DNA of 64,000 nucleotides from a virus (lineage: Duplodnaviria > Heunggongvirae > Uroviricota > Caudoviricetes), in the IMG/VR virus record IMGVR_UViG_3300033124_000732; one strand, 5' to 3'. Below are positions 3,045 to 26,725 of the stretch, in pieces. A program made the position numbers and the translations under genes. Under the pieces are notes generated by a model, which saw nothing but the letters and a program-made list of their open reading frames with translations, was not told the origin of the DNA and searched no databases. How positions within the stretch are numbered: position 1 is the first letter of the stretch; each line of letters opens with the position of its first letter.

Positions 3045-3124
3045 TGGTACCCTTGCTCAGATTCGAACTGAGAACATATACTCCCTTTTGAGGAGAGTGA
3101 CTTTACCAATTTGTCCACAAGGGC
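3045..3124 (-). tRNA. tRNA-Leu(CAA), type II
   Basis: 80 nt with a long variable arm. Anticodon stem CTCTC/GGGAG with loop CTCAAAA. Encoded CCA. Confidence 0.8.
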
Positions 3125-3596: not shown

Positions 3597-3673
3597 TGGT
3601 GCCCCAGAGGAGACTCGAACTCCTAAAATTTGGTTTCTAAGACCAACACGTATACCAATTCCGTCACCGGGGC
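3597..3673 (-). tRNA. tRNA with anticodon UAG (Leu-decoding), atypical type I (short variable loop)
   Basis: Perfect 5-bp anticodon stem TTGGT/ACCAA with loop CTTAGAA. Only 77 nt with a 5-nt variable loop. T-loop TTCGAGT, encoded CCA. Confidence 0.7.
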
Positions 3674-4415: not shown

Positions 4416-5276
4416 TTAATACATTGAAGCTTCGTTGCTTCGATATTCATAATCATCGGGCAACACAACAGCCCGACTACGATCAATCAATTGATCAAAT
4501 CCTGCACCAGGAACGCCCATAACTCTTACCTGCCTACGCCGACTGGTAACTACTGGCACTCCGTGTAAAAAATAATCACTGCTGAGATACATCGAGTCAT
4601 CAGCAAACCGGGCAGTCTCGACGTCGTTGTCTAGTCCCCAGTACAGCGGTACTCCACCGTTGGTGATATTCAAAGTAACAACCACATAACCTTTGTGAGC
4701 CATACCGTTGTTTAAAATTGGATTAGAACCATGCGAGTACAACCGCATGCTGTCTCTGTGTATGATAGCACAACGACCTGGTTCAAGACTCACACAACTG
4801 ACCCAAACTATACGACTCAGGCACAGTTTGTTATAAATGAAGTCAATCAGTTTCAAATTTAATTTGGCAAATTCTGATTTTAACCGCCATTCTCTTTCGG
4901 GTGCAAAATTTCTAGCTGCCAGTAGACCTTTACTTCCGGCTTCTTTTAACACAGGCTCGTCACTATCGGTCACAATCATTTCAGTCATTATGGCCTGTAA
5001 CCAACTGGGGTTACCAAGATTCTGCAATGAAGTTCTATCAGTTGGGCGATCTGCCCAGCTAGGATGCAATGTACCATCTTGCTGAGTATACATGTCAGGA
5101 GGTATCATGCCCCATTGACGATTGAGTTCTGTTGTGGCATCTCTGCCTCTAGTGCTATTGTAGATAAGCCGGCTCCGGGGCATGATGTATCGATCGTATT
5201 CGTAAACAAAACGATCGCGATCATACTCCACAGTCATTGGCGCATAAGCAATATTGGCGTAAGGTGCTGTTGTCAT
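4416..5276 (-). CDS. hypothetical protein (286 aa)
   Basis: Long ORF. Start set at the second Met (5276) because the upstream extension overlaps tRNA-Pro. Confidence 0.55.
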   Translation of the reverse strand: MTTAPYANIAYAPMTVEYDRDRFVYEYDRYIMPRSRLIYNSTRGRDATTELNRQWGMIPPDMYTQQDGTLHPSWADRPTDRTSLQNLGNPSWLQAIMTEMIVTDSDEPVLKEAGSKGLLAARNFAPEREWRLKSEFAKLNLKLIDFIYNKLCLSRIVWVSCVSLEPGRCAIIHRDSMRLYSHGSNPILNNGMAHKGYVVVTLNITNGGVPLYWGLDNDVETARFADDSMYLSSDYFLHGVPVVTSRRRQVRVMGVPGAGFDQLIDRSRAVVLPDDYEYRSNEASMY

Positions 5277-5280
5277 AAAT

Positions 5281-5357
5281 TGGTCGGAGTACGAGGGTTC
5301 GAACCTCGGACCTCCTGGTCCCAAACCAGGCGCACTACCAGGCTGTGCTATACTCCG
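5281..5357 (-). tRNA. tRNA-Pro(UGG)
   Basis: CGGAGTATAGCACAGCCTGGTAGTGC... with anticodon loop TTTGGGA. Encoded CCA. Confidence 0.9.
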
Positions 5358-5798: not shown

Positions 5799-5872
5799 TG
5801 GCACGGGTACTAGGGCTCGAACCTAGAATGACAGAGTCAAAGTCTGTAGTGTTACCATTACACTATACCCGA
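5799..5872 (-). tRNA. tRNA-Gln(UUG)
   Basis: Anticodon stem CAGA/TCTG with loop CTTTGAC. U1-U72 first pair. Encoded CCA. Confidence 0.7.
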
Positions 5873-6448
5873 ACAATTCTCATAAACATATTGAGCATAG
5901 GCCAAATGTGCGTCAAGATTAAAATGCCCCCATTCAGTGCAAGGATAACCCTGTTGTATTGACCAGTCGCAGAAATTTTTATTTACAGGCCACTTCACAG
6001 AAGCTGGCCATTCAAAACTCACAGGCCAAAAACTATCTATGTTTATGACCTTACACATGGCATTCATTGCCAGAATATTTTTTAACTTATTCAGTCGACC
6101 AGTGGTATCGTCTGTGCAATTTACCAACCATTGCTGTCTATATGCTTCAGCAGTGATAGATAAACCACCAGGCACAATAGGCTGCCAGGCACCGGAGCTC
6201 GGATCCCATACTTCACTGCGATTACAACCAGTCCAACATGCAATTACAATATCATACTCATGATGCTGTTGTTCACAAATTCTAAACATGGCATCATTTG
6301 AGCCACCTGTAATTGCACAATTGGTAGGATTGTATCCTAGCATTCTTGCCAGGTGCATGGCATAACTGTTGTTTTGATCGTCTTGACCCGGATGTGAAAT
6401 TTCATTGCCCGATGCATGACTACATCCTAAAATTAATGCTTTTTTCAT
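5858..6448 (-). CDS. GCSH-motif protein (SGNH-hydrolase-like?), paralog of 42035..42763
   Basis: 196 aa; its N-terminal LILGCSHASG matches the VNGCSHTAA motif of the 242-aa protein at 42035..42763. The 3' end overlaps the tRNA-Gln 5' end by about 15 nt. Confidence 0.55.
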   Translation of the reverse strand: MKKALILGCSHASGNEISHPGQDDQNNSYAMHLARMLGYNPTNCAITGGSNDAMFRICEQQHHEYDIVIACWTGCNRSEVWDPSSGAWQPIVPGGLSITAEAYRQQWLVNCTDDTTGRLNKLKNILAMNAMCKVINIDSFWPVSFEWPASVKWPVNKNFCDWSIQQGYPCTEWGHFNLDAHLAYAQYVYENCSGIV

Positions 6449-6461
6449 GCAATTACTTATA

Positions 6462-6536
6462 TGGTGGATGTAAGTAGAGTCGAACTACCACTTGACTCCG
6501 TATGAAGGAGGCGCACTACCATTATGCTATACATCC
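6462..6536 (-). tRNA. tRNA-Met/Ile2(CAU), elongator type
   Basis: Regular G1-C72 acceptor stem GGATGTA/TACATCC and anticodon loop TTCATAC. Encoded CCA. Confidence 0.8.
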
Positions 6537-6541
6537 ATGTT

Positions 6542-6633
6542 TGGTACCCCCACCGGGAGTCGAACCCAGATGAACCAATTATCTGTTGCTTACGGGATAT
6601 AAATCCGCCGTTTTACCATTAAACTATAGGGGC
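6542..6633 (-). tRNA. atypical 92-nt tRNA-like gene, type II length, anticodon arm unresolved
   Basis: Good acceptor stem, D-arm and T-arm (CTGGGTTCGACTCCCGG) with encoded CCA. About 40 nt between the D- and T-arms; the best anticodon stem is only 3-4 bp with loop TTTATAT or a 9-nt loop ATTTATATC. Confidence 0.45.
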
Positions 6634-6638
6634 ATGTC

Positions 6639-6713
6639 TGGGGTGTCGTATGAGAATCGAACTCATGACAGCGGAATCACAACCCGCGGTTTTGCCACTA
6701 AACTAACGTCACC
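6639..6713 (-). tRNA. tRNA-His(GUG)
   Basis: Extra G-1 pairing with C73. Anticodon stem CGGG/TCCG with loop TTGTGAT. Encoded CCA. Confidence 0.85.
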
Positions 6714-9001: not shown

Positions 9002-9076
9002 TGGTTGCGGGAGACGGATTCGAACCGCCGATCTCTAGGTTATGAGCCTAGTGAGTTGCCGCTTCTCTATCCCGCG
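9002..9076 (-). tRNA. initiator tRNA-fMet(CAU)
   Basis: 5' CGCGGG... and 3' ...CCCGCAACCA as in E. coli tRNA-fMet. C1 opposite A72 is unpaired (the bacterial initiator hallmark). Anticodon loop CTCATAA. Confidence 0.85.
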
Positions 9077-10494
9077 ATATTTTATTTATATAGAAACACA
9101 TTCTATGCTTTGGGAATGACATTACTGTCAAGCGACCATCAACGGGTACGGAATGCGTTTGTATATAAAGTGGCGGACTGAGAATACATCCTAACCTAAT
9201 AGTGCCTCGAGCATTATTACAAACCTTGCGAGTCTGCTTTCTCTCGACTTCCACTAAGACCATATTGCTATGTATCCTAGTCCACTATCAGTATCGCCGT
9301 TTTTAAAGACAGGCAGTAGTCTTGTCATCACATGCTACTCTACACCATCTATCCCGTTGACCTTTAGAGCCATTCACTGTCGCTAAACAGTTACGAAACT
9401 TCCAGTATAAACAGATTTCACCTTGCGAGTTACGTCTGACTGTATTGCCTTGCGGCTACAGCATTAGATACTTTTCACACATGACCGAGTCAGTCTTTGC
9501 TTTTTTGTTAGATAGTGGTTATGAAGCCACAGCCTATTCCTTAACAGGGAATTGCTCTACGATGAGCTATATCAACCTACTGCGATGTGCTGACTCAGTT
9601 GCTTCATACTCTTTTGGAATACAAAATACAACACACCACGTTCCTTTTGTCTTGCGAACTACTCAGACGTCTTTTGCGATCAGTGTCGGGTCTCGGCTTT
9701 CGCGTACCTCCACCAACCACTAAAACTGCATACGAGCCCTTGGGTGCAACCCCTCGGACAAATACGCTACCCTTTCTCATACCAATTAACTGGGCTGGTT
9801 TTGTATAGAAGTCAGCACCACCTGTTACTTTCCACTGACTCCGGTTACCCTTGCGGGCCGGTAAGTCATTGTTCTTTCCTATACTCCCAGCGTCATTGTT
9901 ACAACCACCGGTCTTATCAGTGATCGGATCCTCACGGACCTGAGCAGGCTTGTTTACACGAACCATTGCTGGCGGAGTTGCGTAGGCTTACCTCCTTTGG
10001 CTGGGTCACCCCAGTTATTCTTCGTACAGCTGGGCGAACCATACTGCACAGGACAATAAACTGCCCTAAGTATCTATTGTATGACAAACGTCTTTTGTTG
10101 TCAAACTATTTTGGATAAACTGCCAAACAATCTATCCAAAATAGTTTCTATAGTCAAGCACCGAGAGCTACCCAATTTATGCGTCCTCCGCTAAGAGTGC
10201 AAAAGCCGATGGCGGTTATGTTAGGATCCGTTCCCGGCCGGTTGGACCCGAATAGTGATTGATCAGACCACGATACCCTTATCGATGCTTGACTATAAAA
10301 ACTAAAAGTTCGGATTTAAAAATCAAATCCTCCCACTGCTAACTACTGCTTCCCAATTTATCGTCCATCGGCACCCGTGGTAGGGCTTGCGATGCTCATC
10401 GGCCCTGAGTTCTAGCTCAGGTGATCCTTGGGATAGGACTGCTGGGCCTTAGCCTGCCCAGCATCAGGAAAATTAAATTCTCTGTATCGCTATG
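9077..10494. ncRNA. 1.4-kb non-coding region; candidate large structured RNA (GOLLD/ROOL-like?) next to tRNA-fMet
   Basis: No ORF above 120 aa in any frame. Higher GC than flanking genes. Numerous GC-rich hairpins (for example CCTGAG..CTCAGG, CTGGGC..GCCCAG, CCGGCCGG). Confidence 0.3.
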
Positions 10495-12433: not shown

Positions 12434-12908
12434 TGTATCTCCTTGTGTAAAGATTACAGTATACTATAGAACTTGTTTTGTGTCAACTAAATTAGTTGCT
12501 CTGCATCCCCCGGCGGTAATTATACCATAGTTACTTGCGTACCCAAGGCTTCCACCCGCTTCCCGACAGGGACCGCTATCGTGTTGCTAACGGCCTTTCG
12601 GTAAGAAGACTACCACCCTTGAGAGTCACCTCACTTCTTATCCTGCGGGTCACAGTATCCGCTAACCAAGCGGAACGTTAGGGGAGAGCCACGGTTGCAG
12701 GACCTAGTGCTCCGAAGAGGAAGTATCCAGGCGATGTGGCTCTCAAACTTGGTGCACCTAACAGGAATCAAACCTGTCTGCGTTTAGCTTCAAATCCAAC
12801 TCGCAATGGCAATCCAGCGCATAAACTTGGCGGTCCCAGGGGGTAACGATCCCCCTCCTCAGCAGTGACAGTGCTGTGTGCGTCCATGAACACCTTGAGA
12901 CCAAAACA
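12434..12908. ncRNA. non-coding structured region with a tRNA-like 3' module (T-arm plus ACCA at 12750-12790)
   Basis: No ORFs. On the minus strand, ACAGG-TTTGATT-CCTGT followed by TAGGTGC-A-CCA, but no complementary 5' acceptor strand within 400 nt. Many GC-rich helices upstream. Confidence 0.3.
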
Positions 12909-12983
12909 TGGAAGAGCGTAGGGGAGTCGAACCCCTCTTCTCAGGATGAAAACCTGATGTCCTAACCGATAGACGAACGCTCC
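12909..12983 (-). tRNA. tRNA-Glu(UUC)
   Basis: Acceptor stem GGAGCGT/ACGCTCT. Anticodon stem TCAGG/CCTGA with loop TTTTCAT. T-loop GGTTCGACTCC. Encoded CCA. Confidence 0.8.
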
Positions 12984-14659: not shown

Positions 14660-15781
14660 TCAACTATTTTCGGTAAATTCTACAGGATTTTTAAAAGATT
14701 TAAACTGTTGTCCTGTAACTCTAGTGATATCAGCTAGTTCTTCTTCTAGTCGATGTTGGAATTCAGGTTGACAATATGGCTGATACTGATAATCTAATAA
14801 ATTTCTATAGCTGGTGCCCATGCGGTACAACAGGCGATTCTTTACATCGCCCAGTCTGCGATGCTGAGTGATTGAATTATCAAACAGCAACAAATCACCA
14901 TGTTGTGTTTTGTACCAATGATCGTACACATTATTTTCGGCAAACAGTTCAGTTTTGAGCTTGATCAACAATGCATCACTTTCCGGTTGGCTCATGCCCA
15001 CAAATCCTACCACTGTGTTTGGACTAAAATGCAAACCAGCAATTCCGCCGGGACTATTGATCCGCAACGGTAACTGATTGGGAGTTGGACAAAAGTTATG
15101 TTTGAACATGTGGTCTTGAACTAGATTCAATCCAGGATTGATTTTGCCTGGTTGGAATTCATGTTGGCAAACAAGCTCATCTAACTCACTGCGAAATGCT
15201 TCAGACTGATCTTGGTACCATCGAGCAGTGGTACTAAATCCGGTGCTACTGCCAATCACATGATCGATGGCCAACAAGCCCACGCCAGGAGTAAATGCTA
15301 GATGTCCAGATTCATTGCTGTGCCATAACAATTCTCCTTCAGCAAAAATTCCTAATCTACGACCTTGTTCATCTCGTTGTCCGCTAACTCGTTGAGCTTG
15401 TCCTGTACTAACTGGAGCACGAGTATAATCGCTTTCGGTAACAAATGACTGATCCTCAGGAGTTAGTGGATATACACCAGCCTTGAGATCTCTCCACATT
15501 TTATCAAATGCTTGATGTACTGGAAGATTGCTGTCCAGTTGTAGATTGTATTTTTTTAAAAATGTATAAGGACTAAGACTGTTACTTCTACCTAAAGCCA
15601 ACATCAATTCAGACCACCTATCTGGTGTAAGGTTGGTGCCTCTAAAAATTGTAACCAATGTGTCTAAGTGCAGTTTGCCATATACTGTTTGCCATTCTTC
15701 AATGCTGATATTTTCTAAATCAGCGCCGTCGACGAACACGCCGTAGTCACCTAAGCCGGGAATTTTTGTGATAGTTACCAT
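14660..15781 (-). CDS. TauD/TfdA-like Fe(II)/2-oxoglutarate dioxygenase (putative)
   Basis: 373 aa. The WHSNESGH...H pattern resembles the TauD-family HxD/E...H iron-binding site. Assignment from motif memory only. Confidence 0.45.
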   Translation of the reverse strand: MVTITKIPGLGDYGVFVDGADLENISIEEWQTVYGKLHLDTLVTIFRGTNLTPDRWSELMLALGRSNSLSPYTFLKKYNLQLDSNLPVHQAFDKMWRDLKAGVYPLTPEDQSFVTESDYTRAPVSTGQAQRVSGQRDEQGRRLGIFAEGELLWHSNESGHLAFTPGVGLLAIDHVIGSSTGFSTTARWYQDQSEAFRSELDELVCQHEFQPGKINPGLNLVQDHMFKHNFCPTPNQLPLRINSPGGIAGLHFSPNTVVGFVGMSQPESDALLIKLKTELFAENNVYDHWYKTQHGDLLLFDNSITQHRRLGDVKNRLLYRMGTSYRNLLDYQYQPYCQPEFQHRLEEELADITRVTGQQFKSFKNPVEFTENS

Positions 15782-16153
15782 ATGAGATACTTTTTAAGAT
15801 GTGGTAGCTTATTCTGTTACGAGGAAAGCTACCGAAACCCTAAGCAGTGTTTAGGCTGCTAATGCGAACTGTTCGTCGTTTGCGTTTACGTTTTTTGCTT
15901 CTACGGCCAGGAGACCCCAACCCTAACGGCTTCTGCTTTGCCGAGCTGTCCACTCTGTTACTCTTTGCCCTGTCGAAACTATGCAGGCCCATCAAAAACA
16001 TTTTGTAGTTAGAGCCGTTTTCATTCTAACCTTATGGTATTTGACGCATCTTTCGATGGTTACAAAATGTTTATGGTGGACCTGGGGGGATTCGCACCCC
16101 CGTCCAGAACACTTTTCTCTCGGCTTCATACAGCAATAACTTACAGTATATAT

Positions 16154-16342
16154 TTATTCTCGAGGTTTGTCAATAGCTTTGGAGATGATGTCATATACTT
16201 GGGAGTATGCATCTGTTATTTTGTCTAGCTGTTGTTCTGAAACCAAATCTGTATCTTCCAGACTAACCAAGTCCTGGGCCAGATTTTCCTGTAGTTTCTT
16301 TAGTTGATTAATCACATACCTATTTATAGAACAAACGGGCAA
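16154..16342 (-). CDS. possible small acidic protein (62 aa)
   Basis: ORF only. Its start lies inside the terminator hairpin at 16333-16353, so this is doubtful. Confidence 0.25.
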   Translation of the reverse strand: MPVCSINRYVINQLKKLQENLAQDLVSLEDTDLVSEQQLDKITDAYSQVYDIISKAIDKPRE

Positions 16343-26639: not shown

Positions 26640-26725
26640 TGGTACCAGAGACGGGTATCGAACCCGTATGCCCTTTCAAGCGGCAGATTTTAAGTCTGCT
26701 GTGTATACCATTCCACCACTCTGGC
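26640..26725 (-). tRNA. tRNA-Leu(UAA), type II
   Basis: 86 nt. Anticodon stem GCAGA/TCTGC with loop CTTAAAA. Long variable arm. Encoded CCA. Confidence 0.85.

Follow-up and report, generated by a model that had tools for sequence, protein, structure and literature searches.

The window analysed here is a 64,000 nt stretch of DNA from a virus of the Caudoviricetes (IMG/VR record IMGVR_UViG_3300033124_000732). Positions 6542-6633 of its minus strand are a 92 nt tRNA gene with an encoded CCA. ARAGORN calls it as a tRNA-Ile with the anticodon tat (i.e. UAU, reading AUA), and the Rfam model RF00005 scores it at 53.7 bits (E = 9e-9 over the window; gathering score 29), placing all four arms and leaving a 19 nt insertion in the variable region. 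The gene lies 5 nt from its neighbour on either side, a tRNA-Met (6462-6536) and a tRNA-His (6639-6712), in a minus-strand array of 30 tRNA genes that serves all 20 amino acids and is accompanied by a permuted tmRNA and a GOLLD RNA. Two ORFs of 302 and 196 aa (4416-5324 and 5858-6448, both minus strand) lie between tRNA genes and have no Pfam match; they are missing from L080 and L093, two relatives that are elsewhere 96-99% identical, and look like insertions into the tRNA array.

We note several further features of the window. The GOLLD RNA (9175-9639, minus strand; Rfam RF02032, 203.8 bits, full length) lies in the phage tRNA region, adjoins a tRNA-Met (9002-9076), and contains a tRNA-like element at 9506-9576 that scores 46.9 bits. 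The tmRNA (15760-16166, minus strand) is a permuted, two-piece molecule with the tag peptide ANDEQFALAA, scoring as a beta-proteobacterial or permuted tmRNA. In a tRNA-Thr(GGU) (2365-2438) and a tRNA-Asp (12828-12902, minus strand) the T arm reads GGATCGTTACC, where GGTTCGAATCC would be usual. The list of Rfam hits above the gathering threshold includes 12912-12983 and lacks 12828-12902, an absence that may be explained by the altered T arm. Between 13704 and 49421 there are auxiliary genes typical of a jumbo phage, encoding a Gram-negative porin, a TauD dioxygenase, DctP, two TctC solute-binding proteins, two B12-binding radical SAM enzymes, an asparagine synthase, a SAM synthetase and a Band 7 protein. 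The TctC genes and the beta-type tmRNA suggest that the host is betaproteobacterial. Two IMG/VR contigs of 364 and 150 kb match the window in pieces at 83-99% identity, the larger being a close relative. A megablast search of GenBank phages with the first 20 kb gave only short tRNA matches; no cultured close relative is known.

The tRNA gene can be parsed from end to end, all coordinates being on the minus strand. The 5′ strand of the acceptor stem, GCCCCUA (6627-6633), pairs with UGGGGGU (6546-6552), including G1·U72 and C4-G69, as seen from sequence and covariation. Two nucleotides (UA) lead to the D arm GUUU-AAUGGUA-AAAC (6610-6624; sequence, Rfam and covariation), and a single G separates this from the first hairpin, GCGGA-UUUAUAU-CCCGU (6592-6608; sequence, Rfam and compensatory changes), which thus begins one nucleotide after the D arm. 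This is the decoding anticodon arm, with the UAU anticodon at 6599-6601. The five positions of its stem are G·U, C-G, G-C, G-C and A·C (i.e. A31·C39), and the 7 nt loop UUUAUAU has U33 and A37, so that the A35, U36 and A37 expected of a tRNA-Ile anticodon are present. Between this arm and the T arm lies AAGCAACAGAUAAUUGGUUCAU, these extra 22 nt making a second short hairpin, AAGCAA-CAGAUAA-UUGGUU (6573-6591; RNAalifold and pair statistics on 214 sequences). Its stem has a CAA/UUG core, followed by G·G (or a bulged G) and two A-U pairs, and its 7 nt loop CAGAUAA (6579-6585) has GAU at 6581-6583, a placement that rests on the alignment and on loop counts. UUCAU (6570-6574) runs from the core of the second stem to the T stem, its last U being position 48, the Levitt partner of A15. 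The T arm CUGGG-UUCGACU-CCCGG (6553-6569; sequence, Rfam and covariation) is followed by the acceptor 3′ strand, the discriminator A73 (6545) and CCA (6542-6544). The molecule therefore has a 7 bp acceptor stem, a D arm, a T arm with GTTCRA, a discriminator and CCA, as expected for a tRNA. It also has U12-A23. The 29-41 pair is G-C in the decoding stem and its equivalent in the second arm is C-G. Folding of the single sequence is uninformative, its minimum free energy structure not being a cloverleaf (z-score 0.94).

Homologues were gathered by five pattern scans of IMG/VR and one of the GTDB genomes, together with GenBank phage regions. This gave at least 254 loci with a long tRNA(UAU), having at least 218 distinct sequences; at least 204 of the loci are IMG/VR viral, at least 45 are in bacterial or archaeal genomes, and five come from the seven GenBank phage regions examined. 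Several scans had GAT or TTATA fixed in the pattern, so the raw family counts are partly biased, and unbiased counts come only from the two scans that left the extra arm unconstrained. Carriers among GenBank phages include the Lactobacillus phages LpeD and ENFP1 and cultured Vibrio phages (henriette among them) with V. harveyi or V. campbellii as hosts, and blastn against GenBank phages matched 93 nt genes annotated as tRNA-Ile in 40-43 Vibrio phage records. Three of the Vibrio phage genes that were compared differ in their acceptor, D and T stems, while the anticodon arm and the variable-region string AGCAACAGAUAAUUGG are identical. The copies in cellular genomes adjoin tRNA-Leu(UAA) in Actinomyces species, are single genes in Microbulbifer, lie within arrays of 20-30 tRNA genes in Acidobacteria, and occur also in Rhodobacteraceae and Saccharibacteria. 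Among the matches listed, 79 of the 254 loci additionally have an ordinary tRNA-Ile(GAU). A short tRNA-Ile(UAU) that lacks the second arm is also present in viral contigs. The long tRNA-Ile(UAU) is a large and horizontally mobile class that is present in phages, in tRNA-gene arrays and on some chromosomes.

The secondary structure is well supported by covariation. Forty-three representatives at ≤80% identity were aligned with MAFFT, the alignment not being fitted to structure. The five-helix structure is paired in 94.6% of the cells of this alignment, and 23 of its 25 pairs exhibit double changes. None of 500 shuffles matched the observed values, and slid controls were 39-47% paired. RNAalifold independently gives the same five helices, including the hairpin of the variable region, where it finds 4, 25 and 10 double changes in the three core pairs. 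The columns that are invariant in the 43 sequences include U33-U34-A35-U36 in the first loop, and G-A-U plus one A in the second. The decoding loop is kept as YUUAUAN, including U33 and A37, in essentially all of 215 homologues, while the second hairpin has a stem of 3-5 bp and a 7 nt loop Y-W-G-A-U-N-N. The Levitt pair 15-48, A-U in the window tRNA, is A-U in 154 of 179 sequences and G-C in 20, a covariation that favours a core of the normal L shape. Of 175 sequences, 172 have A73 as their discriminator. We regard the gene as very probably a functional member of the long tRNA-Ile(UAU) class. Some other pairings were considered and dropped. Early variable-region stems (CAGAU/AUCUG, AAC/GUU and UUGG/CCAA) are not conserved between the subtypes first compared. 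In those sequences there is likewise no covariation for a T-box-like contact of the UGGU of the arm with the 3′ ACCA, or for one between the arm and the anticodon loop of the same molecule.

Much of the initial annotation of this gene is borne out. It had described a 92 nt tRNA-like gene with canonical acceptor, D and T arms, on which ARAGORN and Rfam agree, and about 40 nt between the D and T arms, where the parse counts exactly 40. It had also listed candidate anticodon stems of 3-4 bp with either the loop TTTATAT (anticodon UAU) or a 9 nt loop, of which the first is right, the stem having four standard pairs in addition to the A31·C39 mismatch, and it had noted that the variable region does not form a clean type II arm, in keeping with a stem that has just three Watson-Crick pairs beside the loop. 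One of its suggestions, a tRNA with a mini-insertion, came near the truth, the insertion being an entire extra hairpin between the anticodon arm and the T arm. Its opinion that the anticodon region is unresolvable does not hold, because the comparative data settle both hairpins, with a five-position stem closing the 7 nt loop UUUAUAU. It had proposed that orthologs be examined for conserved parts; the relatives keep both hairpins, the UAU and the GAU of the extra arm.

The loop of the second arm closely resembles an anticodon loop with GAU at its centre. The sequence is CAGAUAA in 112 of 215 distinct sequences, CAGAUUA in 78, CUGAUAA in six, CGGAUUA in five and UAGAUAA in four. The commonest anticodon loop of the ordinary tRNA-Ile(GAU) in the loci examined is CUGAUAA, so that the second loop of the window tRNA differs from it only by having A in place of U33. 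About 90% of sequences have A here, and about 40% have U at the place in the second loop that corresponds to 37; in the unconstrained sample loop positions 6 and 7 vary, GG, UU, AG and CA also being seen. A scan for TTATA-N{28,36}-T arm, leaving the extra arm free, found 24 long tRNA(UAU) among the first 80 loci, of which 23 have GAU. A scan that fixed only the anticodon arm and T arm listed 123 matches; all but one have an insert of 24-28 nt, and all but two have GAU in the second loop (the variable-region strings being judged by eye). In the same loci a GAU-type loop is present in 248 of 252 long UAU tRNAs, compared with one of approximately 470 long Leu, Ser and Tyr tRNAs. The converse scan, for CAGATWA followed by a T arm, recovered mostly YUUAUAN decoding loops among the tRNA-context matches listed, on unrelated acceptor, D and anticodon stems. 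Second loops without GAU are rare. GAC, a valine anticodon, is present at loci L143 (UGGACUG) and L392 (UGGACGA), GAA is found in Lactobacillus phage Semele (L516, 1499-1589; loop UAGAAAA), and in the long tRNA(UAU) of L343 the arm is a plain one capped by UUCG. The near-universal U33 is replaced by C or A in some of the ordinary tRNA-Ile(GAU) of phages, with the loops UCGAUAA (7), CCGAUAA (4) and CAGAUAA (2), an example being L002 1404-1479.

The stem of the second arm and its position in the molecule also resemble those of a tRNA-Ile anticodon arm. The third pair from the loop, equivalent to 29-41, is C-G in 200 of 214 sequences (93%), while the first two pairs covary freely. For comparison, 29-41 is C-G in 56% of tRNA-Ile(GAU), 50% of short tRNA-Ile(UAU), 9% of all other tRNAs, and 12% of the decoding stems of the long class. 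In E. coli C29-G41 is among the IleRS determinants, where it is a minor one alongside C4-G69 and U12-A23 (PMC9976931). The 3′ end of the second loop is separated from the T stem by 9 nt in 147 cases and by 10 nt in 63 (i.e. 9-10 nt in 210 of 211). The patterns permitted 6-14 nt, and the unbiased set likewise gave only 9-10 nt. The corresponding distance for a type I anticodon loop is 9 nt in 753 tRNAs and 10 nt in 1144, whereas the variable loop of class II (Leu, Ser and Tyr) tRNAs is 4-8 nt from the T stem in 359 of 369. In a BLAST comparison the 3′ half of one family member was colinear with the ordinary 75 nt tRNA-Ile(GAU) genes of Felixounaviruses. Given the spacing and this colinear alignment, the most fitting description of the molecule is a tandem pair of anticodon-type arms, of which the first (UAU) keeps register with the D arm and the second (GAU) with the T arm. 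The second arm thus resembles the anticodon arm of tRNA-Ile(GAU) in its loop (CAGAUAA against CUGAUAA), its 29-41 C-G pair, its distance from the T arm and the colinear alignment. It differs in having a shorter stem, usually A for U33 and often U for A37, and in being preceded by a complete UAU arm.

This arrangement can be compared with those of other tRNAs that have an extra arm. Like the window tRNA, the class II tRNAs for Leu, Ser and Tyr have five helices, one arm being interposed where the anticodon arm gives way to the T arm. Yet the anticodon here is UAU, and the position of the extra arm and its conservation are unlike those of Leu, Ser and Tyr variable arms, so the molecule is not the standard type II tRNA (e.g. 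for Leu) that the initial annotation had named as the outcome that would overturn it. We also note that the tRNA-Leu(CAA) of 80 nt and tRNA-Leu(UAG) of 77 nt with a 5 nt variable loop in the window (3045-3124 and 3597-3673, minus strand) lack the long variable arm that is normal in bacterial tRNA-Leu; the only long tRNA-Leu in the window is tRNA-Leu(UAA) at 26640-26725. Short tRNA-Leu are also found in the acidobacterial tRNA arrays that bear a long tRNA-Ile(UAU). Other viral contigs (L211, L142, L146, L153, L388 and others) have tRNAs of 84-91 nt with long variable arms and anticodons for Thr, Gly, Gln, Asn, Lys or Met, four of them in the 360 kb contig L211, and no conserved loop motif was seen in these tRNAs.

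A close published counterpart is the allo-tRNA-UAU group described by Mukai et al. (2017, PMC5389517), which are also long, five-armed molecules with a UAU anticodon. Some acidobacterial members of our homologue set look like allo-tRNA-UAU, and have the same arm, as GCGC-CAGAUUA-GCGC, together with A73. On the definition of those authors, an allo-tRNA has an acceptor/T branch of 8/4 or 9/3, a long D stem closed by a tetraloop, and G73 or U73. The window tRNA has a 7/5 branch, a 4 bp D stem with a 7 nt loop, and A73, and so is not an allo-tRNA by that definition. The GAU loop is not mentioned in the main text of PMC5389517, although a supplementary figure might show it. The nematode nev-tRNA-Ile(UAU) also combines UAU with an extra arm, but the nev-tRNAs are eukaryotic and charged with Leu (PMC3333845 and PMC4300185). 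In full-text searches of the main texts of the open literature, no account came to light of a tRNA-Ile(UAU) having an arm with a GAU loop, of its C-G pair or of its spacing. The class is widespread and apparently undescribed.

A possible role for the second arm is suggested by the difficulty of decoding AUA. No two codons of the bacterial code are harder to tell apart than AUA and AUG. Known solutions are lysidine (formed by TilS), related modifications of C34, and the co-evolved IleRS and ribosome of M. mobile, whose tRNA-Ile(UAU) is an ordinary short tRNA. IleRS identity derives chiefly from the anticodon and A73, and t6A37 is a strong determinant for the bacterial-type enzyme (PMC9976931), in which N34 is read by the C-terminal Zn-binding domain (PMC11685878). 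For the E. coli enzyme kcat/Km falls 360-fold on going from LAU to UAU (PMC3575796, Table 1). Since bacterial-type IleRS rejects U34, an AUA decoder that is encoded by a phage or mobile tRNA array and is independent of the host TilS has an identity problem. In M. mobile the use of UAU needed a substitution in IleRS and a special ribosome (PMC3575796). The tRNA-Ile2(UAU) of that organism reads AUA through UAU in the absence of lysidine or TilS, has A37 following U36, and has A73 (PMC3575796), in all of which it would be like the window tRNA. The solution in M. mobile lies in the enzyme (IleRS Arg865) and the ribosome (PMC3575796), whereas the window tRNA has a 19 nt GAU hairpin of its own.

Weighing the comparative evidence, we lean, by a small margin over doubt, towards an AUA-decoding tRNA-Ile(UAU) whose GAU arm would supply isoleucine identity to IleRS. 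That the second arm acts as a pseudo-anticodon for the synthetase seems to us an evenly balanced proposition. A bacterial-type IleRS would take isoleucine identity mainly from the anticodon, accepting G34 or lysidine-34 and refusing U34. The determinants missing from the decoding arm, G34-A35-U36 and C29-G41, would be offered by the second arm instead, so that any host could attach Ile to the tRNA, with neither TilS nor an adapted IleRS. The two functions of an anticodon might in this way be physically split, the UAU hairpin reading the codon while the GAU hairpin and its C29-G41 equivalent are read by IleRS, perhaps by way of alternative stacking on the D stem; this fuller picture we put forward tentatively, a little short of an even chance. 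In such a scheme the two hairpins would exchange stacking on the D stem, and the extra arm would be a portable identity cassette, enabling a mobile element to bring an AUA decoder into any host that has a bacterial-type IleRS.

The conserved GAU, the C29-G41 equivalent, A73 and the canonical spacing fit a second arm that makes good the deficits of the first. With its U33, A37 and five stem positions, the UAU arm has the look of the decoder, while the GAU arm usually has A at position 33, often U at 37, and 3-4 bp. The comparison establishes the structure, its conservation, its association with UAU and the spacing; we infer from these features that the second arm would be read by IleRS and the first used on the ribosome. 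The presence of an ordinary tRNA-Ile(GAU) in 79 of the 254 loci indicates that the long tRNA is an extra, AUA-specific species. Some observations go against a role in IleRS recognition. It is hard to see how an arm emerging from the core of the tRNA would get to the anticodon-binding site of IleRS with the CCA end in the active site, unless the stacking is swapped. The U at position 37 of about 40% of second loops removes the t6A determinant. The variation at positions 6 and 7 of the second loop, the GAC, GAA and UUCG exceptions, and the short tRNA-Ile(UAU) in viral contigs also count against it. Some carriers, e.g. Actinomyces, may have an IleRS that tolerates U34. Within the 64 kb window, no IleRS, TilS or other tRNA enzyme was found among the 23 ORFs near the gene that were scanned with Pfam.

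Phage tRNAs evolve against defences that target tRNA, and the GAU hairpin could instead have a non-translational role, being bound as decoy or ligand by something other than IleRS, for example an anticodon nuclease of the host, a toxin-antitoxin system, or an enzyme that has to modify U34 if misreading of AUG is to be blocked. We consider this unlikely. It would accord with the suggestion of Mukai et al. (PMC5389517) that most allo-tRNA-UAU are unused in translation and tied to toxin-antitoxin systems or transposons, and also with the inability of M. mobile tRNA-Ile(UAU) to distinguish AUA from AUG on E. coli ribosomes (PMC3575796), from which some help with fidelity may be needed. Yet cloverleaf constraint acts on the whole body of the RNA, as is seen in the stems of the acceptor and T arms, in A73, CCA and the Levitt pair, and in the U33 and A37 of the UAU loop. 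In addition, the arrays in which the gene is found serve all 20 amino acids, and the C29-G41 equivalent points specifically to IleRS. Moreover, we know of no nuclease or modifying enzyme that is specific for GAU loops.

A73 and A15-U48 are compatible with bacterial Leu identity, and a long extra arm might make the molecule a substrate for SerRS or LeuRS, two synthetases that disregard the anticodon, so that AUA would be recoded as Ser or Leu. In PMC5389517 UAU is the predominant anticodon among the 8/4 allo-tRNAs, the UAU group being the most abundant and treated as possible Ser isoacceptors or as non-translational RNAs; some acidobacterial relatives with the GCGC-CAGAUUA-GCGC arm resemble this group, and nematode nev-tRNA-Ile(UAU) is leucylated in vitro (PMC3333845 and PMC4300185). 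Recoding nevertheless appears quite improbable. It leaves unexplained an invariant GAU loop on a covarying stem; with only 3-5 bp and a distance of 9-10 nt to the T stem, the arm does not match the variable arms of Leu, Ser and Tyr tRNAs; and the discriminator is A73, where G73 or U73 was taken as serine identity. Six allo-tRNA-UAU converted from UAU to CUA gave no insertion of Ser at a Ser-only reporter position in E. coli (PMC5389517), a result that is equally expected if those tRNAs carry Ile. A proteome-wide change in the meaning of AUA is also implausible across so many unrelated phages and hosts.

There is a faint chance that the molecule decodes with both arms, a five-way junction stacking either hairpin under the D stem, such that UAU reads AUA and GAU reads AUY. 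The two hairpins are each placed as an anticodon arm would be relative to one half of the cloverleaf, the first lying 1 nt past the D stem and the second 9-10 nt before the T stem, and between them UAU and GAU would cover all three Ile codons; phage tRNA-Ile(GAU) having anticodon loops without U33 do exist. However, A at position 33 (about 90% of second loops) and U at 37 (about 40%) are both essentially unknown in decoding loops, the second stem has 3-4 bp rather than 5, and with an ordinary tRNA-Ile(GAU) in 79 of 254 loci a second reader of AUY is unneeded. Finally, there is next to no prospect that the gene is a frameshift or nonsense suppressor with an expanded 9 nt loop, or a decaying pseudogene kept in the array, as the initial annotation had offered: while the A31·C39 mismatch could in principle widen the loop to 9 nt, and the single-sequence fold is not a cloverleaf, the mismatch recurs in 88 of 215 distinct homologues and is thus a conserved feature and not decay, other subfamilies have G-C, G·U, U-A or further combinations at 31-39, and in all of them the loop so closed is of 7 nt, the invariant anticodon is the sense triplet UAU rather than a stop anticodon, with U33 and A37 in essentially all 215 relatives, and there are hundreds of homologues, with compensatory changes in every one of the five helices across the 43 representatives.

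If the GAU arm does supply isoleucine identity to IleRS, the window tRNA would constitute a fourth solution to the problem of AUA, one that is encoded in the tRNA itself. It would be a solution on the side of the tRNA that is able to move between hosts, unlike that of M. mobile, and would explain how AT-rich phages and mobile tRNA arrays could provide for the decoding of AUA in unrelated hosts. It would also be a natural precedent for uncoupling the identity that is read by an aminoacyl-tRNA synthetase from the anticodon used in decoding, and as such would be useful in the engineering of orthogonal tRNAs.
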